Notes: generated by a model not told the origin, from the letters alone. A DNA stretch of 64,000 bases from Candidatus Binatia bacterium (GCA_035624785.1 DASPQV010000025.1:285323-349322), one strand, 5' to 3'; positions 4,712 to 22,344 are shown, counted from the first letter of the stretch. Numbers and translations are program-made.

Positions 4712-4841
4712 GAGGGCAGCATCCCGGAGCCGGCGCAGAGGCTCCTGGGAGGCCGCTGGGATTCTGCTGTGAGCCCACTTCACATCGACCTCACAGGGAA
4801 TCCGGAGGGAGGGCTGAGCCGGGAGGGCGATCCTGGCCCTC

Positions 4842-6026
4842 ATGAGCGTCGCCGCCCCCCTTCGGGTCATCGCCCCCGAGCCCTCGCCGGCCGGTTCACC
4901 CCTCGTCGAGATCGTGATCCCGGTCCACAACGAGGAGCGCGACCTCGGTCCGAGCGTGCACCGGCTGCACGCCTACCTCGACGAGGCGTTCCCCTTCCCG
5001 ACGCGGATCACCATCGCCGACAACGCCAGCACCGACCGCACCCGCGCCATCGGGCTGCGGCTCGCCGACGAGCTGCCCGGCGTGGACTACGTGCGCCTGC
5101 AGGCCAAGGGCCGCGGCCTGGCGCTGGCCGCCACCTGGCTCGGCAGTGACGCCATGGTCCTGGCGTACATGGACGTCGACCTCTCCACCGACCTCGACGC
5201 TCTGCTGCCCCTGGTGGCTCCTCTTATCAGCGGCCACAGCGCGCTGGCGATCGGCAGCCGCCTGGCCAGAGGGGCGCGGGTGCGGCGGGGGGTGCGGCGC
5301 GAGCTGATCTCTCGGAGCTACAACCTGATCCTCCGGCTCACCCTCGGGGTGCGCTGCCGCGATGCGCAGTGCGGCTTCAAGGCGATCAGGGCGGACGTCG
5401 CGCGCCGCCTGGTGCCCCGAGTCAAGAACCGCAACTGGTTCTTCGACACCGAGCTCCTGGTGCTGGCGGAGCGGGAGGGGCTGCGCATCACCGAGCTGCC
5501 GGTGGACTGGACCGACGACACCGACTCGCGGGTGCGCGTCGCCGCCACCGCGATCGAGGACCTGCGGGGCGTCATCCGGCTGCTGGTGAGCCGGGGCGGT
5601 CCCCACCGCCTGCTGCGCTTCGCCGGGGTCGGCGGCCTCAGCACCCTCGCCTACGCCGGGCTGTACTGGTGGCTGCGCGGCGTGACCTCGGTGTCAGTGG
5701 CCAACGTGTCGGCACTGCTGGTCACGGCGGTGGCCAACACCGCGGTCAACCGGCGCTTCACCTTCGGGGTCAGCGGCCGGGCCGGCATCTGGAGCGACCA
5801 GGCGGCCGGCCTGATCGCCTTCGGCATCGCGCTGCTGATGACCGAGGCTGCGTCATGGCTGCTCAGCACCCTCGCCCCCCAGGCCGGCCGGCTCGTCGAG
5901 GTAGCGGTGCTGACCGCCGCCAACGTGGCCGCCACGCTGGTCCGCTTCCTGGTGTTGCGCGGCTGGCTCGGCAGCGAACGGCGCCGGCCGGTGCCGCCGG
6001 CCCGCGGCGCCGACGCCCCGCGCTGA
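4842..6026 (+). CDS. GT2 polyprenol-phosphate mannosyltransferase (Ppm1/DPM1-like) fused to a C-terminal GtrA-like 4-TM domain
   Basis: 'VEIVIPVHNEE', 'ITIADNASTDRT', 'YMDVDLSTD' and 'CGFKA' are GT2 DXD/QxxRW-type motifs. The C-terminal 130 aa form four hydrophobic helices typical of GtrA. Confidence 0.75.
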   Translation: MSVAAPLRVIAPEPSPAGSPLVEIVIPVHNEERDLGPSVHRLHAYLDEAFPFPTRITIADNASTDRTRAIGLRLADELPGVDYVRLQAKGRGLALAATWLGSDAMVLAYMDVDLSTDLDALLPLVAPLISGHSALAIGSRLARGARVRRGVRRELISRSYNLILRLTLGVRCRDAQCGFKAIRADVARRLVPRVKNRNWFFDTELLVLAEREGLRITELPVDWTDDTDSRVRVAATAIEDLRGVIRLLVSRGGPHRLLRFAGVGGLSTLAYAGLYWWLRGVTSVSVANVSALLVTAVANTAVNRRFTFGVSGRAGIWSDQAAGLIAFGIALLMTEAASWLLSTLAPQAGRLVEVAVLTAANVAATLVRFLVLRGWLGSERRRPVPPARGADAPR

Positions 6027-6038
6027 GATCCGGACACC

Positions 6039-7451
6039 TCAGCTCCGCAGCGGCAGCTCGATCCTGAAGGTGGCCCCGCCGCCTCGGGTTTCGCTGACAC
6101 CGACCCGGCCGCCATGGGCGGCGACCACCGCGGCGACGATGCTGAGCCCGAGCCCGCTCCCACCCTGGTCCCGGCTGCGCTCCGGGTCGACGCGGTGGAA
6201 CCTCTCGAAGATCCGGCCGCGCGCGGCGATAGGTATTCCGGGTCCGTGGTCGGCGACCTCGATCACCGCCCGGCCATCCTCCTGCCGCAGGGCCACGTCG
6301 ATGGGAGTACCGGGAGGCGTGTGCACCACCGCGTTGCGCAGCAGGTTGGCCATGACCTGGCGCAGCCGCGGCTCGTCCCCGGAGACGGTGAGCGGCGCCG
6401 CGGTACGGACCGTGACCGCCCGCCCCGGGTCGCTGACCCGCGCGTCGGCGCAGGCATCGGAGACCAGGGCCTCCAGGTCCACCGGCGCCCTCTCGAGCGG
6501 CCTGCCCTGGTCGAGCCGGGCCAGGAGCAGCAGGTCATCGACAAGCAGACCCATGCGCCGGGCCTCGTCCTCGATGCGCCGGATGGCCATCTCCAGCTCC
6601 TCCGGGCTCATCCCCGGATTTCGCCGCAGCAGCTCGGCATAGCCGCGCATCGAGGTGAGCGGCGTACGCAGCTCGTGGGACGCGTCCGAGACGAACTGGC
6701 GCAGCCGCTGCTCGACCGCCACCCGCTGGGCGAAGGCGGCCTCGAGCTGCTCGAGCATGGTGTTGAGAGCGAGGCCGAGGCGGCCCACCTCGCTCTCCTG
6801 GTCCGACGGGGTGACCCGCCTGCCCAGCTCACCGCCGGCGATCGCGTGGGCCGTCGCTGCCATGCGGTCGAGCGGGCGGAGCCCGCGGCGGACGATCAGC
6901 CACGCCGCCAGCACCAGCAGCACGACCACCGCCAAACCGACCAGCACCTCGAGGAGCAGCAGGTGGCCGAGGCTGGCGTCGTACGTGTCCATGGGGACGG
7001 CGGCGACCACCAGTTCGCCGCTCCCGTCGTCGGCCACCTGGCTGTAGACCAGGTAGCTCTGGTACTGGCCCGCCCCGCTGACCGTCAGGTAGCGCCCGGC
7101 GGAGGCGGCCAGGTCGGAGGGGAGCACGGGGTGGTTGGCGGTGGCGCTCAATCGGTCCGAGGAGGGGAAGCCAAGGAACTGGGGACTGGCCACCACCGCG
7201 CCCGACGCCGAGAGGACCTCGCCCCAGACGACCCCGGGCTGGGAGCCGGCGCCGGCCGGGCCACCTCCGGGCGGCCCTCCCGGGCCACCGAGAAAGGCGC
7301 TCTGCACCCAGCCCTGCGCGTTGGTGGCCTGCTCCTGGAGCTGACCGAAGAGGAACGACTGCTGATCCGCGTAGACCGCGGCGTCGGCAACCGCCAGGCA
7401 GAGGACGAAGAGAGGGACCAGGGCGAGGAGGAGACGTGCCCGCAGGGTCAT
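6039..7451 (-). CDS. Two-component sensor histidine kinase (HAMP-HisKA-HATPase_c)
   Basis: Two TM segments and H-box 'SHELRTPLTSMRGYAELL'. The HATPase_c region has G-box-like 'GSGLGLSIVAAVVAAHGG' and N-box-like 'LLRNAVVHTPPG'. The stop is adjacent to the start of the upstream response regulator gene. Confidence 0.85.
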   Translation of the reverse strand: MTLRARLLLALVPLFVLCLAVADAAVYADQQSFLFGQLQEQATNAQGWVQSAFLGGPGGPPGGGPAGAGSQPGVVWGEVLSASGAVVASPQFLGFPSSDRLSATANHPVLPSDLAASAGRYLTVSGAGQYQSYLVYSQVADDGSGELVVAAVPMDTYDASLGHLLLLEVLVGLAVVVLLVLAAWLIVRRGLRPLDRMAATAHAIAGGELGRRVTPSDQESEVGRLGLALNTMLEQLEAAFAQRVAVEQRLRQFVSDASHELRTPLTSMRGYAELLRRNPGMSPEELEMAIRRIEDEARRMGLLVDDLLLLARLDQGRPLERAPVDLEALVSDACADARVSDPGRAVTVRTAAPLTVSGDEPRLRQVMANLLRNAVVHTPPGTPIDVALRQEDGRAVIEVADHGPGIPIAARGRIFERFHRVDPERSRDQGGSGLGLSIVAAVVAAHGGRVGVSETRGGGATFRIELPLRS

Positions 7452-7452
7452 G

Positions 7453-8163
7453 TCAGCCGGGGCGAGGTGGCCGGAGCACGTAGCCGACCCCTCGGACGGT
7501 CTGGATCAGGGGTGGGTCGGCAAAGTCCACCTTGCGCCGCAGGTAGCTGATGTACGTCTCCAGGACGCCGGCGTCGCCCCCGAAGTCGTAGTCCCAGACG
7601 TGGTCGAGGATCTGGGCCCGGGAGAGAACACGGCGGGGGTTCGACAGCAGGTAGCGGAGCAGCCGGAACTCGGTGCGGGTCAGCTCCACCGGCTGGCCCG
7701 CCCGCCACACCTCATGGGTCTCCTCGTCGAGCTCGAGGTCGGCGCACACCAGGCGGCTGCTGGGCGCCGAGGGCCCGCCCTCGTAGCGCCTCAGCACGGC
7801 GCGGATCCGGGCCACCAGCTCCTCGATGCTGAAGGGCTTGGTGACGTAGTCGTCGCCCCCGACGGTGAGGCCGCGCACCTTCTCCTCGGTGGCGTCGCGG
7901 GCGGTGAGGAAGATCACGGGAACCCGAAGGCCATCGGCGCGGAGGCGCTGGGTCAGCTGGAAGCCGTCCTCGTCGGGGAGGCCGACGTCGAGGACGACGA
8001 GAGCCGGCCGCCTGTCGAGCACCGCCTGTCGCGCCTGGCGGGCGGTGGCCGCCGTGTCCACCGCGAAGCCCTCGTAGCGGAGGGCGAGCGCCACCAGGTC
8101 GGTGATGTTCCGCTCGTCGTCGACAACCAGCACTCGGGTCGGTTCCGCCGCGGTCGGGGCCAC
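7453..8163 (-). CDS. OmpR/PhoB-family response regulator
   Basis: Receiver domain 'RVLVVDDERNITDLV...VVLDVGLPDEDG...LTARD' plus a winged-helix C-terminus 'LTRTEFRLLRYL...VRGVGYVL'. Confidence 0.9.
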   Translation of the reverse strand: MAPTAAEPTRVLVVDDERNITDLVALALRYEGFAVDTAATARQARQAVLDRRPALVVLDVGLPDEDGFQLTQRLRADGLRVPVIFLTARDATEEKVRGLTVGGDDYVTKPFSIEELVARIRAVLRRYEGGPSAPSSRLVCADLELDEETHEVWRAGQPVELTRTEFRLLRYLLSNPRRVLSRAQILDHVWDYDFGGDAGVLETYISYLRRKVDFADPPLIQTVRGVGYVLRPPRPG

Positions 8164-8274
8164 AGCTCACCATGGTGGCAGCGATTCCTGGGAGTCTGCT
8201 CAGAGATTGCTGAGGGGCGGGTGGGCGGTAGACTGCGGCGGACGGGCAGCGGGTCGGGAAGCAAGGAGACGCCC

Positions 8275-8790
8275 ATGGCAAACGAGGTTTTCGAGGCGGC
8301 GCGGACCGTGCTCGCCGTCCGCGAGTTCGCGGATCGACCGGTGCCTGATGACGTGATCCGGCGTGTCGTCGAGGCGGGGCGTCTCTCCGCAAGCAGCATG
8401 AATCTCCAGCCCTGGCACTTCGTGGTGGTGCGGGATCGTGAACGCCTGCAGGAGCTGGGCAGGCTCGTGAAGACGGGGCCGTACAACGCCCAGGCCGCAT
8501 TTGCCGTCGTGGCGGCCTACCAGCGCTCCAGCCGCTTCGGCGTCTCCGACCTCAGCCGAGCCATCCAGACCATGATGCTGACCGCCTGGGCAGACGGCGT
8601 CGGGTCCAACTGGACCGGCTTCGGCGGGCTCGACGGCGTCCGGGAGTACGTGGGCCTGGACCCGAGCTACGAGGTGCTCGCGGTCGTGCCCTTCGGCTAC
8701 CCGGCCCGCCGGGTGGGGCTGGGCAAGAAGAACCGCAAGCCGGTCGGCGAGGTGGCCTCACTGGAGAGGGCGGGGTCGCCCTTCGCCTGA
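8275..8790 (+). CDS. Nitroreductase family protein
   Basis: 'RPVPDDVIRRVVEAGRLSASSMNLQPWHFVVV' is typical of nitroreductases. ATG 8275 is preceded by AAGGAGAC. The 5' part of the track ORF (7450-8274) is an antisense shadow of the response regulator. Confidence 0.8.
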   Translation: MANEVFEAARTVLAVREFADRPVPDDVIRRVVEAGRLSASSMNLQPWHFVVVRDRERLQELGRLVKTGPYNAQAAFAVVAAYQRSSRFGVSDLSRAIQTMMLTAWADGVGSNWTGFGGLDGVREYVGLDPSYEVLAVVPFGYPARRVGLGKKNRKPVGEVASLERAGSPFA

Positions 8791-9189: not shown

Positions 9190-10161
9190 ATGAGAGCGGT
9201 GATCTACGAGCGCCAGGGCCCGGCCCACGAGGTGCTGCGGGCCGTCGACATCCCCCGGCCCGACCCGGGACCGGGTGAGGTCCGGGTGCGGATCAGCCTC
9301 TCCGGCATCAACCCCACCGACTGGAAGTCGCGGAGCGGGGCCACACCGCGGGCGATCGGCGAGTTCCAGATCCCCCACCACGATGGGGCGGGGGTGATCG
9401 ACGCCGTGGGTCCGGGCGTCGATCAGGGTCGCGTGGGACAGCGGGTCTGGCTCTGGATGGCCGCGGCAGGCCGTCCCTGGGGCACTGCCGCGGAATGGTC
9501 GGTGGTTCCTGCTTACGCCGCCGTCCCGCTCCCCGATGGCGCCTCCATGGAGCTGGGGGCGTGCCTGGGGGTGCCCGCGCTCACCGCGCACCGCTGCCTT
9601 TACGCGGACGGGGATGTGGACGGCCGCACCGTCCTGGTCACCGGGGGAGCGGGAGCGGTTGGACACTTCGCCATCGAGCTCGCCAAGCACGGCGGTGCGC
9701 GGGTGGTCACCACCGTGAGCGGCGCGGAGAAGGCCGAGCTGGCCGGGGCCGCGGGCGCCGACCTGGTGGTCAACTATCGCGAGCCCGACGCCCTGGAGCG
9801 GATCCGCGGTTTCGCCGAGTGGGTCGACCGGGTGGTGGAGGTCAACATCGCCGCCAACCTCGCCCAGGACCTGGCCCTCGCCGGCCCGGGTACGGTGGTG
9901 GCCGCTTACGCCATCGACCAGCCGGATCCGGTCCTCCCGGTCAGGGCCTGCATGGCCGCCAACGTGACCCTCCGATTCGTGCTCCTCTACGGGGTGCCGG
10001 CGGCGGACCTGCTCCGAGGCGTGGAGGATGTGAGCCGGGCCCTGGCGGCGGGCGCCCTGACGGCGCTGCCGATCAGGAGGTTCCCGCTCGAGGAGTGCGC
10101 GGCGGCTCAGGAGGCGGTGCGGGAGGGCGCGGTCGGCAAGGTGGTCCTCGAGATCGGCTGA
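9190..10161 (+). CDS. MDR-superfamily zinc-binding alcohol dehydrogenase / NADPH:quinone oxidoreductase-like
   Basis: 'MRAVIYERQGPAHEVLRAVDIPRPDPGPGEVRVRI' is GroES-like. 'VLVTGGAGAVGHFAIELAKHGGARVV' is the Rossmann GxGxxG. The upstream 113 codons of the track ORF are low-complexity read-through. Confidence 0.8.
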   Translation: MRAVIYERQGPAHEVLRAVDIPRPDPGPGEVRVRISLSGINPTDWKSRSGATPRAIGEFQIPHHDGAGVIDAVGPGVDQGRVGQRVWLWMAAAGRPWGTAAEWSVVPAYAAVPLPDGASMELGACLGVPALTAHRCLYADGDVDGRTVLVTGGAGAVGHFAIELAKHGGARVVTTVSGAEKAELAGAAGADLVVNYREPDALERIRGFAEWVDRVVEVNIAANLAQDLALAGPGTVVAAYAIDQPDPVLPVRACMAANVTLRFVLLYGVPAADLLRGVEDVSRALAAGALTALPIRRFPLEECAAAQEAVREGAVGKVVLEIG

Positions 10162-11357
10162 GCCGCCCGCCCCAGCGGCCAGGCGACCGCGAAACGCGCC
10201 CCGCCCCCCTGCGCCGGGGAGACGTCCCAGCGGCCCCCGGAGCTCCGGACCACGGCATCCGCTATGGCCAGCCCGAGCCCGGCTCCCTCGCCGCGTGCGG
10301 TCGCCCGGTGGAAGCGGTCGAAGATGCGGGGAAGCTCGCTCTCCGAGATCCCCTCGCCGTCGTCGCTGACGGACATCTCCACCCGGCGCCCGGGGAGAGC
10401 GCGGACCCCGACGACGACCCGCGACCGGGCGTGCCGGCAGGCGTTGTCGAGCAGCACGCCGATGAGGCGTTCCAGCCAATCGGGCGGGATCGAGATGGGA
10501 AGGGTCAGCTCCGGGGATTCGACCTCGAGGCTCAACGACCGCGCCTGGGCAAGCGCCGCGAACCTCTCGACGGCCACCGCTGCCGCGGTGACCAGGTCGA
10601 TGTCGGCCGGCTCCGGGGGCTCAGGCTCGGAATCGAAGCGGGCCAGCCAGAGCAGGTCCTCGACGATCCGGCGCATCCGGCCGATCTCGCCGCTGACCCG
10701 GGTCAGGGCGGGACGGAGACTCCGGTCGCCACCGGCGAGGGCCACGTCGGTCTCCGCCTTGATGACGCTCAGCGGGGTCCGCAGCTCGTGCGAAGCATCG
10801 GCGGTGAAAGCCAGCTGGCGCTGCCGCATCCTTTCCACCGAACCCCCGACGCGGCTCCCGATGGCAAGCGAGCCGGCGAAGACGACGACCAGCAGCAACG
10901 GCCCGACCACGAGCTCAGCGAGCACCACGTCCGAGAGCTGACGCGACGCCGGCGCCAGGCTCTCACCGGCCACGGTCAATGCGCCGCTGGCGAGGCGCCG
11001 GCCCTCCACGCGGAACGGGATCCCGTTGACCGTCGCGCTGGCCGGACCGCCGGCGCTGCAGAGGCCGGACGGCAGCGCGGGGGCGTTGCCCACCGGGGTG
11101 CAGCGGCCGCCCGGCAGGGCGATCCAGGAGAGGATCGGGGCGTCGAAGTCACTGTCGGCGACGGCGGCATTCCCGCCGGCCCCCGCGACCTCGCCCATCC
11201 AGTCAGCCAAGCGCTGGTCGACAGCCGCGGTGAGGCTGTGCTCGACGATCAGGTCAGTGGCGGCGAGGACCGCCGCGAGGGCGGCCGCGACCAGGGCGGT
11301 GGAGACCGCGGCGGTGCGCAGGGCATGGCGGCGGAGGTCGGTTCCCGGCCGCCTCAT
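10107..11357 (-). CDS. Two-component sensor histidine kinase
   Basis: H-box 'SHELRTPLSVIKAETDVAL' and HATPase_c region 'LLDNACRHA...GAGLGLAIADAVV'. Its stop is adjacent to the start of the upstream response regulator. Confidence 0.85.
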   Translation of the reverse strand: MRRPGTDLRRHALRTAAVSTALVAAALAAVLAATDLIVEHSLTAAVDQRLADWMGEVAGAGGNAAVADSDFDAPILSWIALPGGRCTPVGNAPALPSGLCSAGGPASATVNGIPFRVEGRRLASGALTVAGESLAPASRQLSDVVLAELVVGPLLLVVVFAGSLAIGSRVGGSVERMRQRQLAFTADASHELRTPLSVIKAETDVALAGGDRSLRPALTRVSGEIGRMRRIVEDLLWLARFDSEPEPPEPADIDLVTAAAVAVERFAALAQARSLSLEVESPELTLPISIPPDWLERLIGVLLDNACRHARSRVVVGVRALPGRRVEMSVSDDGEGISESELPRIFDRFHRATARGEGAGLGLAIADAVVRSSGGRWDVSPAQGGGARFAVAWPLGRAAQPISRTTLPTAPSRTAS

Positions 11358-12019
11358 CGGCCGACCAGACGGTATCCGGTGCCCCGGATCGCGAGGATGG
11401 ACACCCCCGCATCACCTCCCAGCTTGGCCCTGAGGCGGGCCATGTGGGCCTCCATCGCATTCCAGCTGGCGTCGGCGTCGGGCCAGACGTGCTCGGCGAT
11501 GCTCTGACGGCTCACCACCGCTCCCGCGCGGCGAAGCAGCAGCTCGAGGATCGCGAACTCCCGTGGGGTCAGGTTCAGGACTCGGCCCCCGCTCCGTGCC
11601 TCGTGGGTGGCCGGATCGAGGCTCAGGCTGGCCAGCCGGAGGGTGGGCTCGGACGTCGGACCGCCGCGGCGCAGCAGCGCCCGCATCCGTGCCAGCAGCT
11701 CATCGAAGTCGAAGGGCTTGACCAGATAGTCGTCGGCCCCGGCATCGAGGCCGCGGACGCGATCCTGGGTGGTGTCGCGGGCGGTGAGCATCAGGATGGG
11801 CAGGCGAAGCCCGCGGCGGCGGGCCTCAGCGATGACCTGGGCACCGTCCAGCGCCGGCATCCTCCAATCGAGGACGGCCGCCGCGTACTCCCCGGTCATC
11901 AGCATGTGGAGAGCGTCGTCGCCACGGCCGGCGGTGTCCACCAGATACCCGGCCTGGAGCATTCCCCGCCGGAGCGCCGCGAGCAGCGGGGCGTCATCCT
12001 CGGCCACCAGGACCCGCAT
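11354..12019 (-). CDS. OmpR-family response regulator
   Basis: 'MRVLVAEDDAPLLAALRRGM...AAVLDWRMPALDG...LTARD' plus a winged-helix C-terminus. Start placed at the internal Met (residue 21). Confidence 0.85.
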   Translation of the reverse strand: MRVLVAEDDAPLLAALRRGMLQAGYLVDTAGRGDDALHMLMTGEYAAAVLDWRMPALDGAQVIAEARRRGLRLPILMLTARDTTQDRVRGLDAGADDYLVKPFDFDELLARMRALLRRGGPTSEPTLRLASLSLDPATHEARSGGRVLNLTPREFAILELLLRRAGAVVSRQSIAEHVWPDADASWNAMEAHMARLRAKLGGDAGVSILAIRGTGYRLVGR

Positions 12020-12228
12020 GCCCGCCACGCTAACGCTTCCCGTGCGGGTCCGGAGCAAGACTCCGCCGATGCCGAACACACTGGCTACGATGGCCCGCCC
12101 GGCTGACGCCGGCCTGACCGCGCGTCACCAGATGGGTGGGCGAGAGCGCTCCGGCGGTCCTCGCCCGCGGTGTCGACGGGCGCGGGCACCGTAAGGCATC
12201 CGTCAGGGGAGGGCCATAGGATCGCGGC

Positions 12229-13656
12229 ATGGTGCGCTTCCTCCCCACCGCGGCCACGCCGCCGCGCCCCCGGGCATCCGCCGTGCCGCCACCGCAACCC
12301 AGGCGCGCTGTCAGGTCTCCGCGCGCCTGGGGACTGCGGCCGGGCGATGCCGCGCTCATCGTCTTCGGCAACGCGCTCCTGATCGTCCTGATGTGGGTGC
12401 GCCACGGCCAGCTCCCCAACCTCGTGAGCCCGGCCGCGGACTTCACAGCCATCGGCCAGCTCGCCGCTCTGCTGGGGACATACTCGGCGCTGGTCCAGGT
12501 GGTGCTGATGTCTCGGAGCCCCTGGCTGGACAGCATCTGGGGAATCGACCGCATCGCGGGTTGGCACCGCTGGCTCGGCTTCGCCACCGTGTACCTGATC
12601 TGCGGCCACGTTTTCTTCACCACCGCCGGGTTCGCGCTCGCCGACGGCCGCAGCTTCGCCACCCAGACCTGGGTCTTCCTGACCACCTATCCCTACATGC
12701 TGATGGCCTATGTGGCGATCGCCCTCTTCATCCTCATCGCGGTGACCTCGATCCGGGCGGCACGCCGGCATGTCTCGCACGAGACCTGGCATCTCATTCA
12801 CTTCTACGTCTACCTGGCGATCGCGCTCGCCTTCGGCCACGAGGTGGCGGTGGGCACCGACTTCGTCCACGACCCGGTGGCGCTCGGCTACTGGATGGCC
12901 CTGTATGCCGCCGCCCTGCTCTGCATCGTCGCCTTCCGGATCGTCATCCCGATGCGGCTCGGGCTTCGTCACCGCCTCCACATCCAGAGCCTGGTCGCGG
13001 AATCGCCGCAGGTCACCTCCATCTACATCGGCGGCCGCGACCTCGCCGAGCTGCCGATGCGCGCCGGGCAGTTCTTCAAGTTCCGCTTCCTGGCCCGAGG
13101 CCGGTGGTGGCAGGTCCACCCCTTCTCCCTGTCGGCGGCTCCCAATGGCGAGTACCTGCGCATCACCGTCAAGGGGGTGGGCGAATTCAGCCGCTCGCTG
13201 GCCCTCCTCAGGCCGGGGACGCGGGTGCTCGTGGAGGGGCCGTACGGAGTCTTCACCTCGGTGCGGCGGCACCATCCACGGGCGCTGCTGATCGCCGGCG
13301 GGATCGGGATCACCCCGCTCCGCGCGCTCATCGAGGAGATGCCGCAGCGGAAGAACTCCATCGCGCTCCTGTACCGGGCGCGCACCTGGGCCGACGTCGT
13401 CTTCAAGGACGAGCTGGACCGCCTGGTGTCCGCCCGCGGCGGCGTCATTCACTACATCGTCGGGCGGCGGGGACGCGAGATCCACCCTCACCCATTCGCT
13501 CCCCGCCTGCTCGCCTCCGCGGTCCCCGACCTGCGCCAGCGCGACGTCTTCGTCTGCGGCCCGCGGGAGATGGTGGACGACGTCCTGGGCAGCCTTCACG
13601 CGCTCGGCCTGCCCGCGCGCCAGGTCCATGTCGAGCGCTTCGCGTTCCTGACCTGA
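12229..13656 (+). CDS. Ferric-reductase-like transmembrane (haem) domain fused to FAD- and NAD(P)-binding domains (NOX/FRE-type)
   Basis: Six hydrophobic helices with paired His ('GHVFFT', 'WHLIHFYVYLAIALAFGHEVA'), then 'HPFSLS', 'GPYG' and 'LLIAGGIGITP', the flavin/NAD motifs of the ferredoxin-reductase fold. The first ~35 codons are Arg/Pro-rich with lower GC3, so the start is uncertain. Confidence 0.7.
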   Translation: MVRFLPTAATPPRPRASAVPPPQPRRAVRSPRAWGLRPGDAALIVFGNALLIVLMWVRHGQLPNLVSPAADFTAIGQLAALLGTYSALVQVVLMSRSPWLDSIWGIDRIAGWHRWLGFATVYLICGHVFFTTAGFALADGRSFATQTWVFLTTYPYMLMAYVAIALFILIAVTSIRAARRHVSHETWHLIHFYVYLAIALAFGHEVAVGTDFVHDPVALGYWMALYAAALLCIVAFRIVIPMRLGLRHRLHIQSLVAESPQVTSIYIGGRDLAELPMRAGQFFKFRFLARGRWWQVHPFSLSAAPNGEYLRITVKGVGEFSRSLALLRPGTRVLVEGPYGVFTSVRRHHPRALLIAGGIGITPLRALIEEMPQRKNSIALLYRARTWADVVFKDELDRLVSARGGVIHYIVGRRGREIHPHPFAPRLLASAVPDLRQRDVFVCGPREMVDDVLGSLHALGLPARQVHVERFAFLT

Positions 13657-13668
13657 GAGGTACCCGGG

Positions 13669-14154
13669 ATGCCCGTGCGCGCCATCGTCAGCTTCGTCGC
13701 CACCGCGGTCGGCCTGATCCTGGTGTTCAGCTTCCGCACCCCGCCGGCGGCACCGGCCGCGGCGCTGACGCCCACCACCCCGCCGTCGACGGCGGCGCCG
13801 GCGGCGACCCCATCCGGAGCGCCTCCATCGGGAGGCGGCAGCCCGACTCCCACCCCGCAGTCCTCGACCGGCTTGAAGAACGGGACCTACACGGGCCAGA
13901 ACGCGGCCAACTTCTACGGGCCCGTGCAGGTGCAGGTGGTGATCTCCGGCGGCCGGATCACCGACGTCAAGATCGTGCAGCAGCCGAGCGACAACCCCCA
14001 GTCGGCGTACATCGCGTCGGTGGCCATCCCGTACCTGCGGCAGGAGGTACTCCAGGCCCAGAGCGCGCAGGTGCAGATCATCAGCGGGGCCACCTTCGAC
14101 AGCCAGAGCTACATGCAGTCGGTGCAGTCGGCGCTGGACCAGGCGCATGCCTGA
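13669..14154 (+). CDS. FMN_bind domain protein (single N-terminal TM, Pro/Thr-rich linker)
   Basis: C-terminal 'GRITDVKIVQQ...YLRQEVLQAQSAQVQIISGATFDSQSY' contains the [S/T]GAT flavinylation-site motif of NqrC/RnfG-type FMN_bind domains. Confidence 0.75.
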   Translation: MPVRAIVSFVATAVGLILVFSFRTPPAAPAAALTPTTPPSTAAPAATPSGAPPSGGGSPTPTPQSSTGLKNGTYTGQNAANFYGPVQVQVVISGGRITDVKIVQQPSDNPQSAYIASVAIPYLRQEVLQAQSAQVQIISGATFDSQSYMQSVQSALDQAHA

Positions 14155-14169
14155 CGAAACGATGAGAAG

Positions 14170-14958
14170 GTGATGGACGAAGGGTGGCCGCCGTCCCGCA
14201 CCGTGCGGGCCGAGCCGGTCATGGGCACGGTGATCACCGTCGACGTTCGCGAGGCGGGCGACTGGGCGGGTGCGATCGACAGCCTGTTCCGCTGGTTCGA
14301 CGAGGTGGATTCGCTCTTCAGCACCTTCAAGGCTGGAAGCGAGGTGAGCCGGCTCGCCCGCGGCGAGCTCACCGAGGGCCGATGCCAGCCTCAGGTCCGC
14401 GAGGTGCTCGCCCTCTGCGAGGAAGTGACCCGGCGGAGCCAGGGCGCCTTCGACATCCGGGCTGACGGCAGCCTCGATCCCTCCGGACTGGTGAAGGGGT
14501 GGTCGGTGGAGCGTGCCGCGGCGATGCTGCAGGCGGAGGGAGCCCGCAACTTCTTCATCGGCGCGGGCGGTGACATCGCGGCCCGCGGCGGCCCCGCCCC
14601 GGGCCAGCCCTGGCGCGTGGGGATCCGCCATCCTGAGATCGCCGGCAGGATGGCCGCGGTGCTGGAGATCGGCGACCTGGCGGTCGCCACCAGCGGCGCC
14701 TACGAGCGCGGCCAGCACATCGTCGATCCGCGCACCGGCCGGCCGCCGTCAGGTCTGCTCAGCATGACCGTGGCCGGACCCAGCCTCACCTACGCCGACG
14801 CCTACGCGACCGCGGCCTACGTCATGGGTGAGCCCGGTCCGGGCTGGGTCGCCGGCATCGACGGCTACGCCGCCCTGGCCATCACCGCCGACCGGCGCAC
14901 CGTCTGGACGGCGGGGATGGACGCGCTCCGGGTGCGGGACGGCGCCGCCGCCGTCTGA
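14170..14958 (+). CDS. apbE: FAD:protein FMN transferase (ApbE family)
   Basis: 'FDIRADGSLDPSGLVKGWSVERAAAML', 'NFFIGAGGDIAARG' and 'AVATSGAYERGQHIVDPRTGRP' match ApbE core motifs. No obvious signal peptide. Confidence 0.8.
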   Translation: MMDEGWPPSRTVRAEPVMGTVITVDVREAGDWAGAIDSLFRWFDEVDSLFSTFKAGSEVSRLARGELTEGRCQPQVREVLALCEEVTRRSQGAFDIRADGSLDPSGLVKGWSVERAAAMLQAEGARNFFIGAGGDIAARGGPAPGQPWRVGIRHPEIAGRMAAVLEIGDLAVATSGAYERGQHIVDPRTGRPPSGLLSMTVAGPSLTYADAYATAAYVMGEPGPGWVAGIDGYAALAITADRRTVWTAGMDALRVRDGAAAV

Positions 14959-15040
14959 GCACAGTCAGGGAGCCGCAAGCCGGTCGGGCTAGCCTCCCGG
15001 TTGTGGAGCGGGATCGCCAATCGATCGCAGCCGTGGCGGG

Positions 15041-15739
15041 GTGGAGCCGGTGAGCCCTCCCGTCGAAGAGGCCTCCGTCGCGGATCGCCTCGACGCTTCC
15101 ATCCACAGCTGGGCGGCTCCGCTCTCCGAGCTGGTCACCGGCCCATCGCACCGCCGCCTCGACGCGGCGCCGCGTGTCGAAGCCAACGCCCGGTTGACCG
15201 CGACCATCGGGATCGTGCTCCTGCTGCTGTTCGCGGCGGAGGGCATCACGGTGCTCTCGATCCACCGGCTCCTCCCCCTCCACGACGCCATCGGGCTGCT
15301 CCTGATCCCGCCCGTGCTGCTCAAGATGGCGAGCACCGGCCGCAGATTCGCCGCCTACTACCTCGGGGACCGCGAGTACCGCGCGGCCGGGCCACCCCCC
15401 ATCCTGCTCCGGCTGGCCGGACCGCTGGTGGTGATCCTGACGGCGGCGCTGCTCGGCACCGGCGTCGAGCTGTGGCTCTTCGGCCCCCGGTTCGGGAGCC
15501 TCTGGCTGACCGCGCACAAGGCGAGCTTCGTCCTCTGGCTCGGGGTGATGGCGATCCACGTCCTCGGCCACCTGGAGCGCGCTCCCCGGCTCGCCCTCCG
15601 CGACCTGGCTGGCCGGCCGGCGGTGGCCGGCAGCGGACGGCGCCGAGCCTGGCTGGCCGCCTCACTGCTGATGGGGCTGGCGCTGGCCGCCGCGGTCCTG
15701 CTCTACCACTCGCCCTTCATGGCGCCGCTGGAGCACTGA
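15041..15739 (+). CDS. Hypothetical polytopic membrane protein
   Basis: Very high GC3 in this frame and about five hydrophobic helices. It lies 83 nt downstream of apbE on the same strand. The start may be GTG. Confidence 0.55.
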   Translation: MEPVSPPVEEASVADRLDASIHSWAAPLSELVTGPSHRRLDAAPRVEANARLTATIGIVLLLLFAAEGITVLSIHRLLPLHDAIGLLLIPPVLLKMASTGRRFAAYYLGDREYRAAGPPPILLRLAGPLVVILTAALLGTGVELWLFGPRFGSLWLTAHKASFVLWLGVMAIHVLGHLERAPRLALRDLAGRPAVAGSGRRRAWLAASLLMGLALAAAVLLYHSPFMAPLEH

Positions 15740-15906
15740 CCTGACCGTCCCGCCCCTGGTGGGTCAGTGTGCCTCTCGATATACTCGGCGTGAGGCACCG
15801 GACTGACCGGCTCGGAGCGATGGCCCCTCGGGCCCAGGCTCTCCGCCCGGGGCCGTCCGGACCGGGAGCCGGGGATCCTCGTGAGCGGCGGCGGAGGGAG
15901 CAGGCG

Positions 15907-18072
15907 ATGTCGACACGAAGGCAATTCGCCCTCCTCGGCGCCTGGGCCGCGCTGCTGGCGATCGCCCTGGGCGTCTTCATCTGGGTCCGCCAGCCGCAGC
16001 CGCCCTACGCCAGCCTCGGCCAGCTCTTCCAGGCCGCCGACAGCAGCCATGCCGCCGGCATCCCTCCCCAGCAGCAGCTCTCCCTCGATCCCTCCCATCC
16101 CACCCTGATCGGGACCGACACCGTGACCTGGTGGGACGCGGCGGGCGGCGAGCACCGAACCCCCATCCCCGACCAGGACGTGGTCATCTCCACCCTGCAC
16201 CAGGACGGCTACGACAACATCGCGGTGGACACCGGCGTCCCCCTCAAGACGATCCTGCTGATCCTGGTCCCGACCCTGATCGTGGTCATGGTCATCGTCA
16301 TCCTCTACTGGCGCCAGGGGAGCTCCGGGGTGGCCCGGCTGCTCCGCTTCGGCCGGAGGAAGTCGGCAGGTGAGCGCCCGGCCACCCGCTTCTCGGATGT
16401 CGCCGCCTGCGAGGAGGCCAAGGTGGAGCTCGCCGAGGTGGTCGACTTCCTCCGCGATCCCAGCCGCTACCGGGAGCTGGGAGCCCGGGTCCCCCGGGGA
16501 GCGCTCCTGGTCGGACCTCCCGGGACCGGCAAGACCCTGCTCGCCCGCGCCGTCGCCGGTGAGGCGGACTGCGCCTTCCTGGCCCTCTCGGGCTCCGAGT
16601 TCGTGGAGATGTACGTGGGGGTCGGGGCGGCCCGGGTCCGGGACCTCTTCGCCCGAGCCCGCAAGTCGGCGCCCTGCATCGTCTTCATGGACGAGATCGA
16701 CGCCGTCGGCCGCCGCCGCGGCGGCAGCGGGGTCAACCCCGGTCACGAGGAGCGGGAGCAGACCCTCAACCAGCTCCTGGTGGAGCTGGACGGATTCGAC
16801 CAATCCTCGCGGATCGTGGTCCTGGCCGCCACCAACCGGCCTGACGTGCTCGACGAGGCACTGCTGCGGCCGGGGAGATTCGATCGCACCGTGACCGTCG
16901 ACGTGCCCGACGTCGCCGGCCGCCGGGCGATCCTGGAGCTGCACTCGCGGGACAAGCCCCTCGCTGCTGACGCGGACCTCACCCTGATCGCCCGGCGCAC
17001 CCCCGGTTTCACCGGCGCGGACCTGGCCAACCTGGTCAACGAGGCGGCGCTCCTCGCCGCTCGGGAGCGTGCCCCCACGATCGCCGTGGAGCACCTGGAG
17101 AGGGCGGTGGACCGGGTGCTCACCGGGCCCGAGCGCAAGGGCCGGCTGGTCAGCCTCGCCGAGCGGCGGATCATCGCCCACCACGAGATGGGCCACGCCC
17201 TGGTCCTGGCGGCACTGCCCGGCACCGACCCGGTGCGCCGGGTGAGCCTGGTGGGCCGCGGGCGATCCCTGGGTTGGACACTGACGGTCCCTGAGGACGA
17301 CCGCGTGCTGGGCTCGAAGTCGCAGCTCACCGCCCGGCTGACCGGGCTGCTCGGCGGGCGGGCGGCCGAGGAGATCCTGCTCGGTCCCGAGGACATCACC
17401 ACCGGCGGCGCGGACGACCTTCTCAAGGCGACCCAGCTGGCCCGGCAGATGGTCACCGAGCTGGGCATGTCGCGGGTCGGGCTTCGGGTGGTCGAGGCGG
17501 ATGGTGACCTGGGCCCGTCCCGTCCCCATTCGGACGAATTGGCGCGCCGTATCGACGCGGAGGTGGATCGCCTTCTCACCGAGGCGATGCAGCGGGCCGG
17601 CGAGATCCTGCTGGAGCGGCGCGACCTGCTCGAGGACCTGGCGGCGCGGCTGCTCGAGGTCGAGACGATGAGCGCGGAGGAGATGGGCGAGGTGATCGCT
17701 GCGCATCCCGCGGTGGAGCTGCGCGGCATGCGATCGGCCAGTCGCGAGAGGCCTGTGGTGGCGGCCGCGCCGCAGCGGGTCGAGGCCGCGTCCGCCCCGC
17801 TGGATGCGATCCCGGCTCCGGGCGTGACCATGGCGGCGCCCGCCGTGGCCGTGGCCCGGCGTGCCGCGGCGGCGATCCACCCGTCCCCCTCCGGGGTGGC
17901 GGTTGCAACCGGCCCGCTGCCGGCGACCTCGGAGCGGGCTGCCGTGGCCGCTGTGGCGGCCCCAGGGAGCCGTGCCGGCGTCGCCGCACCCGGGCGCCGG
18001 CTGCTGCGATCCGTGCTCCAGGCGGCGCAACGGGCCCTGAGGCGGCCTGGAACCGGCAACCCCTCGGGCTGA
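15907..18072 (+). CDS. ftsH: ATP-dependent zinc metalloprotease FtsH with Ala-rich C-terminal extension
   Basis: Walker A '[17 protein letters not shown]', Walker B '[10 protein letters not shown]', SRH '[19 protein letters not shown]' and zinc motif 'HEMGHAL'. ATG 15907 is preceded by GGAGGGAGCAGG. Confidence 0.9.
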
Positions 18073-19784: not shown

Positions 19785-20957
19785 TCAGCTGTCCGCCCAG
19801 GCGGGGGCGGCGGTCGCGTCCAGGTCGAGGTTGCTGGTGATCTGCCTGGGGTGACCCGGGACGGCGGCGGTGGCGCCCTTCAGGTACCAGAGCTGGAAGT
19901 ACCCGTCGCCGCCCTCCGGAGCCAGGTAGAGGAGATCCTGGCCATCCGGCGACCAGGTCGGAGAGGCGGCGAGCACCCCCGTGACCTGGCGCTGGAGCGG
20001 ACCGAGCGTGCCGGTTGCGGCATCGAAGCTGGCGACCACCAGGTCCGACTCGGCGCTGCTCGGAGCGCCGGCGACGACCGGGGTGCAGATCATGGCGATC
20101 TCGGTCTGATCGGGGTTGAGCGCCGGCTGGGCGCAGTCATCGCCGGGTTGGGTCAGCGCCGTCCCGTCCTCGCCCGGAGCGCAGGTGGCGGGGGAGCCTC
20201 CCTTGGGATCCAGGCGGATCTGGCTCACCTCGGTGCCCGGGACCGCGCCCGCCAGCGGCGTGCTCAGCTCACCGGTGTCGCCGTACGCCGATTCGTAATC
20301 GACGTAGACGAGACCGCCGCCCAGCAGCGGAACCGGGCTGACATCGCCGCCCGTGTAGTAGTTGGCCCAGCTCTGCTGGGTGATGTCCTTGCCCTTGACG
20401 ACGCCGGCCCGATCGATCTCGGTACCCAGCGTGGTGCTCCAGATCGAGTAGTCGACCTGGTAGCCGTTGCCCGGCTCGCAGACGCCGCCCTTGGGCCAGT
20501 CGTAGCTGAAGTACAGGGTGTCCCCCGGACCCACCGCCGGGTAGGCGATCCAGTCGTCGTTGCCCAGCTGGGTGGCCGTTACCTTGCCGGAGTCGTGGCT
20601 CAACTGCGACTCGATGCTGCCGTCGAGGTTCAGCTCGTAGAGGTCGGAGAAGTAGTTGGTGGTCACCTTGACCGCGAGCAGCGCGCTGCCGTCAGGGAGC
20701 AGCACCGGCTGCGTCCAGCCCTGCCCCGGGGGCTGGAGCTCGGTGATGGTGCTGCCGTGGAGGGAGTACAGCCCTCCGCCCGCCGCGAAGTAGATGGAGC
20801 CGGGCAGGGTGAATTGGGGGTGGAACTGGACGGGATTGTGGACGGGAGGAGCGTCGACCCGGCTGGACCGGCTCGCCAGGTAGCGGTTGACCCCGGCGCC
20901 GAAGCCGGCCATGAGGACCACGAGGATGGCGGCGGTGGCCGCCCGGCGGCGGCTCAT
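19785..20957 (-). CDS. TolB-like beta-propeller (PD40 repeat) protein, N-terminally membrane-anchored
   Basis: N-terminal TM 'AAILVVLMAGFGAGV' and PD40-like repeats ('LLPDGSALLAV', 'SPDGQDLLYLA'). Its start overlaps the LCP stop by 4 nt. The upstream 170 codons of the track ORF are a shadow of the LCP gene. Confidence 0.65.
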   Translation of the reverse strand: MSRRRAATAAILVVLMAGFGAGVNRYLASRSSRVDAPPVHNPVQFHPQFTLPGSIYFAAGGGLYSLHGSTITELQPPGQGWTQPVLLPDGSALLAVKVTTNYFSDLYELNLDGSIESQLSHDSGKVTATQLGNDDWIAYPAVGPGDTLYFSYDWPKGGVCEPGNGYQVDYSIWSTTLGTEIDRAGVVKGKDITQQSWANYYTGGDVSPVPLLGGGLVYVDYESAYGDTGELSTPLAGAVPGTEVSQIRLDPKGGSPATCAPGEDGTALTQPGDDCAQPALNPDQTEIAMICTPVVAGAPSSAESDLVVASFDAATGTLGPLQRQVTGVLAASPTWSPDGQDLLYLAPEGGDGYFQLWYLKGATAAVPGHPRQITSNLDLDATAAPAWADS

Positions 20958-22051
20958 GGCGCTGGGAAGTACTGGTGGACCACCCCGAGGATGGCGCTCA
21001 TGTCGGGGAGCTCGACGTCCTGGCTGTCCACGACACCCATGCTGAACTGGGTCAGGAAGACGTGCTGGATGCTTCCCGACTCGACGTCCTTGACCAGCCC
21101 GAGCAGGGTGGGGAGATTGGTGAGCGGCACGTCGGTGAGCACCTGGCCGCTGAGCGCCGAGGCGATGCCGTTGACGTCGGCGATGCTGAGCTGGGCCAGC
21201 TTCTGGCGGAGCGCGACCAGGACCTGCTGCTGCCGGACGGTGCGGCCCAGATCGCCGTTGAGGTCGTCGTGGCGGGAGCGCACGTACTCGAGGGCCTCGT
21301 AGCCGTCCATGTGCTGAGCGCCGGGAAGCACCGAGACCCGGTCGGCGGCGTTGGGGTTGGTGCTGCCGGCGACGTCGTAGGGGTAGTTGTCGTCCATCAC
21401 CGGGTGGCTGGCGACGATGTCGATGCCGCCGACCTCGTTGATGAGGTTGATCAGCCCCTCCAGCCCGATCCACACATAGTGGTCGACCGAGACCTGGAAG
21501 TCGCGCTCGATGGTTGCGATCTCGGCGCTGGCACCGTTGGTCCCGTCCGGTGGCGAGACGTCACCGAAAGCCTGGTCGACCTTGCCGGACCCCAGGGACG
21601 CGCCGGTCCCGCTGTAGAGGGGCACCCAGAAGTCACGGGGGATCGAGAGCATGGTGACGCTGGACGTGGAGGGGTCGACCCGCATCAGGATCAGGGACTG
21701 GGCGCAGCAGAAGATCGGAGTTCCCGCGCCGTTGGTGAACTTCTGGTCGTTGTCGGAACCCATCAGCAGGACCGTGAAGGCGGAGCCGGTGGGAGGCGCG
21801 GTCGACGGGGGGCTCGTGGCCGGACCACTGGTGGCGGTCGGATGCAGCGAGGGGATCGCGTTCTGCCCCGTCGCCCCCACCGCCGCGGTGATGGTGGGCC
21901 AGAAGAAGCTGACCACGCCGCCCACCCCGGCGAGCAGGAAGCCGAGCACGATCAGGGCGATCCAGCGCAGCCGGGGCAACCTGAGAGTGTGGCGTGAGCG
22001 GCGCCGCCGCCGCCGCGGCTCCGGCCCCCTCTGAGGACGGGTGTCGCTCAT
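20954..22051 (-). CDS. LCP (LytR-CpsA-Psr) family cell-envelope glycopolymer transferase
   Basis: Charged N-terminus then a TM segment, followed by 'FTVLLMGSDND...ILMRVDPSTSSVTMLSIPRDFWV...VDHYVWIGLEGLINLIN'. Start set at the internal Met (residue 134). Confidence 0.8.
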   Translation of the reverse strand: MSDTRPQRGPEPRRRRRRSRHTLRLPRLRWIALIVLGFLLAGVGGVVSFFWPTITAAVGATGQNAIPSLHPTATSGPATSPPSTAPPTGSAFTVLLMGSDNDQKFTNGAGTPIFCCAQSLILMRVDPSTSSVTMLSIPRDFWVPLYSGTGASLGSGKVDQAFGDVSPPDGTNGASAEIATIERDFQVSVDHYVWIGLEGLINLINEVGGIDIVASHPVMDDNYPYDVAGSTNPNAADRVSVLPGAQHMDGYEALEYVRSRHDDLNGDLGRTVRQQQVLVALRQKLAQLSIADVNGIASALSGQVLTDVPLTNLPTLLGLVKDVESGSIQHVFLTQFSMGVVDSQDVELPDMSAILGVVHQYFPAP

Positions 22052-22344
22052 CTCATCCGGACTCTGGCCGCCGCCCCGGGCCGCGGGGACCATCCGGCCT
22101 CCCGGCGCTGGGGAGCGAGCGCGGCCTCCACATCCCGTGTGGCCGAGCCGTACGCCGCCGGGTGCGGCACGCCGGCATCGGCAACTCCTTCTCCTGTCAC
22201 AAGGCGAGACCGCTCCCCGACGGACCGCCAACGGCCGGATGATAGCCGACCGGGCGAGAGGTCGCCCCGAAGGCTCGGCCGACACGTTGCGCGACCCACC
22301 GGCACGGCGACGGGAAAGGGTGCGGGGTTGCCTACTCTTGATCC

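Follow-up and report, generated by a model that had tools for sequence, protein, structure and literature searches.

We analysed a 64,000-nt stretch of DNA (the window) deposited under a Candidatus Binatia bacterium (GCA_035624785.1 DASPQV010000025.1:285323-349322), which has around 72% G+C along its whole length, and describe here a four-gene operon on its plus strand together with the two-component system encoded upstream on the opposite strand. The operon encodes a NOX-type flavocytochrome b (protein 1, 12229-13656), a membrane-anchored FMN_bind protein (protein 2, 13669-14154), a leaderless ApbE-family enzyme that would transfer flavin mononucleotide (FMN) from flavin adenine dinucleotide (FAD) to protein (protein 3, 14170-14958) and an accessory membrane protein of unknown family (the fourth gene, 15041-15739). 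A previous interpretation based on the DNA alone (the sequence-only reading) had placed three co-directional genes with short gaps in the region 12229-15739, and the open reading frames are indeed found at those coordinates on the plus strand. Its arrangement is right but its spacings of 13-16 and 83 nt were off by one: the gaps are 12 nt between the NOX and FMN_bind genes, 15 nt between the FMN_bind and ApbE genes and 82 nt before the fourth gene. All three domain calls it made, NOX, FMN_bind and ApbE, were confirmed by hidden Markov model searches, and an NCBIfam search of the operon proteins gave sub-threshold matches only.

Genes 2 and 3 are each preceded by a short Shine-Dalgarno-like run, and between the four genes we found neither a consensus promoter nor an intrinsic terminator. 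The four genes form a real operon. An Arg/Gly-rich open frame of 877 codons runs antisense to it (12085-14718, minus strand); this frame is a spurious long open reading frame typical of 72% G+C DNA and no gene.

The first protein matches the Pfam families Ferric_reduct (1.6e-14), FAD_binding_8 (4.2e-7) and NAD_binding_1 (5.7e-10). Its predicted haem ligands are His113 and His127 on transmembrane helix 3 and His191 and His204 on transmembrane helix 5, spaced i+14 (His113-X13-His127) and i+13 (His191-X12-His204), and it carries the FAD motif HPFS (297-300), the NAD(P)H motif GGIGITP (357-363) and CGP (443-445). In an alignment of 12 homologues (55-100% identity) the four histidines, HPFS, GGIGITP and CG (443-444) are invariant. 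The Pfam matches, six hydrophobic segments and invariant histidines bear out the proposal of a six-transmembrane, bis-His haem domain fused to FAD/NAD(P) domains.

We also compared the protein with the sequence filter for bacterial NOX enzymes of Hajjar 2017, which includes the FAD motif H[PSA]F[TS][LIMV], two His-X12/14-His pairs on separate transmembrane helices and 3-7 predicted transmembrane helices (PMC5676040). Protein 1 passes all the bacterial-NOX sequence filters, with HPFSL at 297-301, GIGITP at 358-363, both His pairs and the six hydrophobic segments. Eight basic residues are found in its N-terminal tail and three in each of the two even-numbered loops, compared to 0-1 in the odd-numbered loops. 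This distribution obeys the positive-inside rule, and we therefore place the N-terminus and the dehydrogenase domain on the inside.

The only full-length relatives of protein 1 found by sequence in the PDB are entries for SpNOX (E ~4e-12), the NADPH oxidase of Streptococcus pneumoniae (8qq7/8qt6). The AlphaFold2 model of protein 1 likewise has SpNOX as its best fold match (TM-score 0.68, E 6.5e-16), followed by human NOX2, NOX5 and DUOX1. The two proteins share the six-transmembrane bis-haem and FAD/NADPH domains, the His spacing and the FAD/NADPH motifs at ~20% identity, but SpNOX acts alone and reduces O2 to superoxide, without the flavinylated partner and the ApbE that are both present in the window operon. 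To our knowledge, no two-component system is linked to SpNOX.

In the second protein a hydrophobic N-terminal anchor (residues 3-21) is joined through a Pro/Thr/Ser/Ala linker to an FMN_bind domain (Pfam PF04205, 4.3e-9). By hydrophobicity, residues 3-21 could score either as a signal peptide or as an anchor. The predicted flavinylation site is Thr142 in IISGAT (codon 14092-14094), and the residue at -6 to this site, usually Asp, is Gln here. The single-transmembrane FMN_bind protein with a Pro/Thr-rich linker and an ISGAT site that the sequence-only reading described is thus what we find.

A match at 1.1e-16 links the FMN_bind domain to PDB 8p2a, in which AVSGATYTS pairs with IISGATFDS. This entry is domain 2 of SaFMN3 from Streptomyces azureus (PMC10339131). 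Co-expression of SaFMN3 with ApbE placed FMN on the corresponding threonines; its midpoint potential is -184 mV and its reaction with O2 is slow (PMC10339131; PMC12052999). The FMN_bind domain of SaFMN3 is the nearest solved relative of that of protein 2, and SaFMN3 shares with it the N-terminal anchor and an apbE gene alongside; it has three FMN_bind repeats, whereas the window protein has one.

Around 78 orthologues of the FMN_bind protein begin with basic residues (KR, RR or KK; in Dormibacterota a single R), continue with ~19 hydrophobic residues and a linker rich in Ser, Thr, Pro and Ala, and contain [S/T/G]GA[T/S]. Judged by these sequences, the layout is that of an N-in, C-out anchor. 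The modified hydroxyl residue, Thr or Ser, is retained in all complete orthologues, in line with the earlier expectation that the SGAT threonine would be conserved. The motif varies in detail: it reads GGAT and not SGAT in four loci (L001, L006, L012, L026) and ends in Ser (SGAS) in four others (L013, L018, L023, L031). Some Streptomyces orthologues (L043, L044, L052, L058, L060, L065, L066, L071) contain two or three tandem FMN_bind repeats, each with TVSGAT, and resemble the three-flavin SaFMN3.

The third protein matches ApbE in Pfam (PF02424, 4.1e-49) and contains the motifs MGT18, ATSG173, HIVDP183 and ADAYAT209, the last three of which align with ATSG, H-I-V-D-P and A-D-A-Y-A-T of Vibrio cholerae ApbE (6nxi). 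It falls under the NCBIfam equivalog cut-off (69 versus 498 bits) and is therefore a divergent, shorter member of the family. By its retained catalytic motifs the enzyme looks functional. Characterised ApbE members typically carry an N-terminal lipoprotein or secretion signal. Here there is no hydrophobic segment, and the reading frame cannot be extended upstream, since 14170 is the first start codon after the stop, so the enzyme has neither a signal peptide nor a lipobox, as had been noted before.

The leaderless state extends well beyond the window. In ~70 related loci the frame before the R-V-E-x-[VI]-M-G motif of ApbE is an Arg-rich, out-of-frame sequence overlapping the FMN_bind gene and never a signal peptide. 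Among 1.84 billion cluster representatives, 460 relatives of the window ApbE were found below 1e-30; the best 150 of these 460 are almost all 240-290 residues long, with a match starting near residue 1-25. The N-termini of seven longer relatives that we inspected are mis-called Arg-rich or Pro/Ala-rich sequences, none of them hydrophobic. On this comparison, the missing signal peptide is a conserved trait of a large clade and not an annotation error. What had been noticed as an oddity of this locus is thus real but family-wide.

Because the leaderless state is conserved across the clade, the mismatch between an ApbE inside the cell and an FMN domain outside is real and general. It is not addressed in the literature we searched. 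Cytoplasmic ApbE enzymes are known to serve cytoplasmic substrates, for example in Klebsiella pneumoniae (PMC12052999). The K. pneumoniae ApbE is also an active flavin transferase free of a signal peptide, but its substrate is a soluble cytoplasmic fumarate reductase, whereas the presumed substrate of the window ApbE is predicted to face outward.

Most likely, though speculatively, the FMN_bind polypeptide would be flavinylated in the cytoplasm before or during Sec-dependent translocation. We favour this order because ApbE is leaderless throughout the clade, apbE is tightly coupled to the gene of its substrate and no flavin exporter is linked to the operon, and we regard it as the weakest step of our model. 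An unrecognised export route, a second ApbE that is exported and encoded at another place in the genome, or an FMN domain that faces inward may instead apply. Tat export of the pre-flavinylated protein is unlikely as a general route, because the variable dibasic residues at the N-terminus (RR, KR, KK or a single R) do not fit a conserved twin-arginine signal.

Upstream of the operon and divergent from it, an OmpR/PhoB-type response regulator (11354-12019, Pfam Response_reg and Trans_reg_C) and a sensor histidine kinase (10107-11357, Pfam HisKA and HATPase_c) are encoded on the minus strand by genes that overlap by 4 nt. Pfam therefore agrees with the OmpR/histidine kinase pair that the sequence-only reading put at 10107-12019. 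The likely start of the regulator is the ATG at 12019 (MRVLVAEDD); in the longer open reading frame the domain begins at residue 23. Regulator orthologues in five related loci (L002, L004, L005, L007, L015) are 68-83% identical.

The kinase has two transmembrane segments and an outward-facing domain of ~105 residues, and no HAMP domain precedes its HisKA and HATPase_c domains. The outward domain contains Cys86 and Cys100 (CX13C), which are invariant in six Dormibacterota orthologues. Actinobacterial kinases found beside the operon have a HAMP domain and one conserved external Cys. We considered whether the neighbouring two-component system is the CutRS/CssRS system of Streptomyces and rejected this assignment, as those kinases have two conserved external Cys and the actinobacterial kinases of the operon one; nor is the operon mentioned in the CutRS literature or in a review of Streptomyces coelicolor two-component systems. 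The activity of CutS in Streptomyces is controlled by an extracellular Cys pair (PMC12802291), which makes it a reasonable guess, but no more, that the window kinase senses envelope redox or stress.

By aligning the intergenic regions between the regulator and NOX genes of Dormibacterota relatives, we found a conserved direct repeat with an 11-bp period, which in the window reads CGTAAGgcatcCGTCAG (12190-12206, plus strand) and overlaps the -35 position of the putative operon promoter. It sits 10 nt 5′ of a -10-like hexamer, TAGGAT (12217-12222, plus strand), a putative promoter element judged by its sequence and its spacing in relatives. A gap of 6 nt separates the hexamer from the ATG at 12229, an arrangement kept with a 7-nt gap in L002, L004 and L015. 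This leaves no room for any ribosome-binding site; the NOX gene is therefore probably translated from a leaderless mRNA.

A pattern scan of the 64 kb with one mismatch allowed gave two matches, both inside the 209-bp regulator-NOX intergenic region. The second is GGTCAGgccggCGTCAG (12103-12119, minus strand), which faces the regulator gene; its counterpart is exact in L005 and degenerate in L002 and L015. In actinobacterial loci the equivalent repeat is CGACAG-N5-CGACAG. An exact CG[AT]CAG-N5-CG[AT]CAG was found in the intergenic region of 37 of the 42 loci with a divergent regulator, and the density of such sites is ~490-fold higher there (37 in 12.6 kb) compared to elsewhere (4 in 664 kb). 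A direct repeat spaced by 11 bp at the -35 position is the classic activation geometry of OmpR/PhoB-type regulators. The repeat at 12190-12206 is accordingly a candidate response-regulator site and the copy at 12103-12119 a candidate site of autoregulation. We found no IdeR/DmdR-type iron box anywhere in the window and, on this basis, rejected iron control of the operon. Literature searches on ApbE with two-component systems in Streptomyces and on flavin in Dormibacterota returned nothing relevant.

To define how widely the arrangement is conserved we used a sample of 80 genome loci, with counts taken from tblastn; a gene caller based on G+C at third codon positions (GC3) was noisy in high-GC loci and was not used for counting. 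An FMN_bind gene comes after NOX in 78 of the 80 loci and ApbE in 72; 71 loci have the full triad. The triad is spread over Dormibacterota, Chloroflexota and Actinomycetota, so the synteny in relatives on which the earlier proposal depended holds for the triad. A divergent OmpR-type regulator lies within 900 bp in 42 of the 80 loci and any regulator within 6 kb in 54. Neither the two-component system nor the fourth gene is present in the closest relatives (L001, L003, L012), and L084 has the same gene order as the window.

The arrangement differs in some Chloroflexota loci, where regulator, kinase, HtrA-like protease, NOX, FMN_bind and ApbE genes follow one another on one strand. In L010, L016, L017, L020, L021, L027, L035 and L039 an HtrA-like serine protease with a PDZ domain is encoded beside NOX in the same orientation, frequently behind a regulator-kinase pair. 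Present in Chloroflexota and a few loci of other origin, this neighbour is a hint of a connection with the quality control of envelope proteins.

The fourth gene encodes a His-rich protein with an N-terminal helix and five long helices in its AlphaFold2 model (predicted local distance difference test, pLDDT, 88.7), and it matches no Pfam and no NCBIfam family. Around 580 homologues, all annotated as 'hypothetical', are found in Dormibacterota and Acidimicrobiales; in their alignment His81, His159 and His173 are invariant, His177 is ~90% conserved and a GPPP loop is kept. The fourth gene overlaps apbE by 4 nt in L084. In L082 and L083 (5060-7717), which have no apbE in the locus, its 4-nt overlap is with the FMN_bind gene. 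The same order of NOX, FMN_bind and fourth gene without apbE in the locus occurs in some Dormibacterota operons (L082, L083, L007), where the flavin transferase is therefore either encoded elsewhere or dispensable.

A homologue with 51% identity lies in an unrelated gene context. From the 4-nt overlaps in some relatives and the unrelated context of this homologue, we judge the fourth gene to be no core partner but an accessory of the operon, restricted to some Dormibacterota (one subclade). The sequence-only reading had likewise placed a polytopic membrane protein here. The protein would be an optional and perhaps haem-binding membrane partner.

A NOX protein identical to that of the window is deposited under a metagenome-assembled genome labelled 'Candidatus Binatia bacterium'. 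Its nearest relatives come from metagenome-assembled genomes of Dormibacteria/Dormibacterota (70-77% identity), and the next nearest from Limnocylindria (Chloroflexota), Acidimicrobiales, Streptomyces, Amycolatopsis and Lentzea. On this evidence the host is most likely a member of the Dormibacterota and not an actinobacterium. The 'Candidatus Binatia' label of the source bin may be wrong, as all close NOX relatives come from Dormibacteria or Dormibacterota bins.

The neighbouring genes that we scanned against Pfam include a second two-component system, a nitroreductase, a zinc-type dehydrogenase, an FtsH-like protease, an MFS transporter and cell-wall enzymes. The FtsH-like AAA/M41 protease gene (15769-18072, plus strand) lies directly downstream of the operon, a position it keeps in L001, L003, L012 and L084. 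Its product has a long Ala/Pro-rich C-terminal tail, and its true start is probably near 15907, since relatives align only from residue 47.

The second two-component system is encoded on the minus strand by a kinase gene with a HAMP domain (6039-7451) and a regulator gene (7453-8163). A nitroreductase-family gene lies beside it, with the domain at ~8300-8790 on the plus strand; the 5′ part of the corresponding open reading frame (7450-8790) is probably non-coding because it overlaps the regulator gene in antisense. Genes for envelope glycosylation and for attachment to the wall flank the region at 2534-4930 (minus strand), 4842-6026 (plus strand) and 20954-22450 (minus strand) and encode a PMT_2/YkcB-like mannosyltransferase, a GT2 enzyme with a GtrA domain and a LytR-CpsA-Psr ligase. 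These flanking genes are consistent with a Gram-positive-type wall in the host.

The operon belongs to a class that was first described in 2021 from an analysis of genomes. In the part of their study that covers it, Méheust et al. 2021 report 1,797 clusters of an 'MsrQ-like system' in 1,468 genomes, 'broadly conserved in Actinobacteria', which typically hold apbE and an FMN_bind gene; in 1,437 of them a PF00175 domain is fused, and NAD(P)H is proposed as the cytosolic donor (PMC8238504). As defined there, a member has a PF01794 (Ferric_reduct) gene no more than five genes away from one for ApbE or FMN_bind (PMC8238504). In the window the Ferric_reduct, FMN_bind and ApbE genes are adjacent, and protein 1 ends in a PF00175 domain (5.7e-10). 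The suggested fit to the diversity of ApbE-associated extracytosolic redox systems is therefore correct, since that same account describes the 'MsrQ-like system' explicitly. No member of the class is known to have been characterised by experiment, and a follow-up structural study added only AlphaFold comparisons of the haem site (PMC11334425).

The published clusters and the window have the same gene set (PF01794 and PF00175, FMN_bind, apbE) and the same path from NAD(P)H to an extracytosolic flavin. The class is described in that account as mainly actinobacterial, whereas the window copy lies in a probable Dormibacterota metagenome-assembled genome. The conserved two-component system with its repeat, the leaderless ApbE and the fourth gene, all seen here, receive no mention in the published passages on these clusters.

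Two better-known systems offer partial parallels. The flavin-based extracellular electron transfer pathway of Listeria (Ndh2, EetAB, PplA and FmnB) also carries electrons from NADH to a surface-tethered protein flavinylated by an ApbE enzyme in a cell without an outer membrane, but it uses a type-II NADH dehydrogenase and a quinone in place of a haem protein. FmnB, the ApbE homologue of this pathway, is an exported lipoprotein and its FAD comes from a dedicated ECF transporter, whereas the window ApbE has no leader and lacks a linked flavin exporter. In E. coli MsrPQ, a haem membrane protein of the MsrQ family likewise feeds an extracytoplasmic redox partner, but MsrQ has no fused dehydrogenase, the partner is the molybdoenzyme MsrP and not a flavinylated protein, and there is no ApbE. 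MsrPQ is encoded next to HprSR (YedVW), an OmpR-type two-component system that senses oxidants. No molybdopterin MsrP partner of the kind encoded with MsrQ was found in the window operon or among the neighbouring genes scanned against Pfam.

We consider it likely, on the strength of these homologies, that the operon encodes a one-way, NAD(P)H-driven exporter of electrons to a flavin protein anchored on the outside. Cytoplasmic NAD(P)H would reduce the FAD of the NOX dehydrogenase domain, from which electrons would cross the membrane via an inner haem (His113/His191) and an outer haem (His127/His204). They would then reach the FMN that ApbE installs on Thr142 of the FMN_bind protein, which its anchor and flexible Pro/Thr linker would hold outside, and this FMN would reduce an external acceptor not encoded in the locus. 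The OmpR-type regulator would switch the operon on by binding the 11-bp-spaced repeat at the -35 position of the leaderless promoter, with the Cys-pair domain of the kinase in control, and the product of the fourth gene would be an optional membrane partner.

Several points weigh against this model. Homology is the sole basis for the proposed binding of haem, FAD and FMN, for the donor specificity and for the direction in which electrons would flow, the AlphaFold2 model of the NOX protein is only moderately confident (pLDDT 67), and binding of the regulator to its candidate site is a prediction only. An export signal is missing from ApbE although its presumed substrate faces outward, and the anchor of the window FMN_bind protein is flanked by one Arg on each side, so that its orientation rests mainly on the orthologues. 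The Dormibacterota kinases (no HAMP domain, two Cys) and the actinobacterial kinases (HAMP domain, one Cys) differ, and the sensed signal may therefore not be the same. Finally, the neighbouring genes scanned against Pfam encode no acceptor, iron transporter or reductase partner.

Four rival explanations were weighed. In an envelope redox-repair or stress module the kinase would sense oxidised extracytoplasmic thiols and the operon would export reducing power with which oxidised parts of the envelope are repaired or protected, a logic like that of MsrPQ-HprSR, and both the HprSR parallel and the MsrQ homology of the membrane protein speak for it. So do the HtrA-like protease gene directly upstream on the same strand in Chloroflexota loci, the FtsH-like protease gene directly downstream in the window and in L001, L003, L012 and L084, and the conserved outward-facing Cys pair of the kinase with its precedent in CutS (PMC12802291). 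However, no partner resembling MsrP, thioredoxin or DsbD was found in the operon or among the neighbours scanned against Pfam, the actinobacterial kinases possess a single conserved external Cys, and the protease neighbours vary between phyla and may be coincidence, which leaves this explanation credible but doubtful.

Assimilatory ferric reduction, in which the external FMN would reduce Fe(III) or ferric siderophores for uptake as in yeast FRE and the VIT1-carrying MsrQ-like clusters, could draw on the ability of reduced flavins, free or bound, to reduce Fe(III), and it agrees with the place of protein 1 in the NOX/FRE family. Iron reduction has been proposed, in the published passages on them, for 153 MsrQ-like clusters with VIT1 (PMC8238504). 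Yet the neighbours scanned against Pfam include no iron transporter, siderophore gene or VIT1, the window has no IdeR/DmdR-type box and the operon is tied to a two-component system across phyla instead, and SpNOX reduces iron only indirectly, via superoxide (PMC5676040); we hold this explanation to be unlikely.

If O2 itself were the terminal acceptor, the operon would encode a true NADPH oxidase whose product outside the cell is superoxide or H2O2, and the FMN protein would either be the site of O2 reduction or be bypassed. The closest solved relative, SpNOX, is a constitutive producer of superoxide (PMC5676040), and reduced SaFMN3 consumes O2 (PMC10339131; PMC12052999), although its O2 reactivity is reported to be low (PMC10339131). 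Direct reduction of O2 at the outer haem would make the flavinylated partner superfluous, yet this partner is kept in 78 of the 80 loci, and we find such an oxidase distinctly improbable.

The last alternative concerns topology. The FMN_bind domain could be cytoplasmic together with the leaderless ApbE; it would then serve the inner face, for instance by feeding electrons into the haem domain, and would be no external acceptor. The whole ApbE clade is leaderless, pairs of ApbE enzyme and FMN_bind substrate that are both cytoplasmic are known, as in K. pneumoniae (PMC12052999), and the window anchor is flanked by one Arg on each side. Orthologues, however, have KR, RR or KK before the anchor and a long S/T/P-rich linker after it, which is an N-in, C-out pattern, the fused FAD/NAD domain already provides a cytoplasmic electron input, and SaFMN3 is likewise predicted to be anchored outside (PMC10339131). 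An inward-facing flavin domain is therefore very unlikely in our view, and we keep the outward electron exporter as the preferred model.

The locus is largely an ordinary example of a published class with a few unexplained details and does not overturn current understanding. What is added here is a regulatory element shared across phyla, the generality of the leaderless ApbE, an accessory membrane protein and the reach of the class into the uncultured phylum Dormibacterota. Systems of NOX, FMN_bind and ApbE proteins are abundant in soil Actinomycetota, although none is known to have been studied by experiment, and are thought to couple the cytoplasmic NAD(P)H pool to chemistry on the outside such as iron reduction, redox repair or electron disposal. 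The conserved regulator site and the Cys-bearing sensor could reveal the inducing signal and hence the function.

We tentatively propose, as a minority possibility suggested by the clade-wide comparison, that the leaderless ApbE clade marks a distinct route in which flavinylation takes place inside and the protein is then exported with its flavin attached, probably by Sec as an unfolded, modified chain. If flavinylation does precede export in the cytoplasm, an FAD exporter would be unnecessary, and this would represent a new way to build extracytoplasmic flavoproteins in Actinomycetota, Chloroflexota and Dormibacterota.

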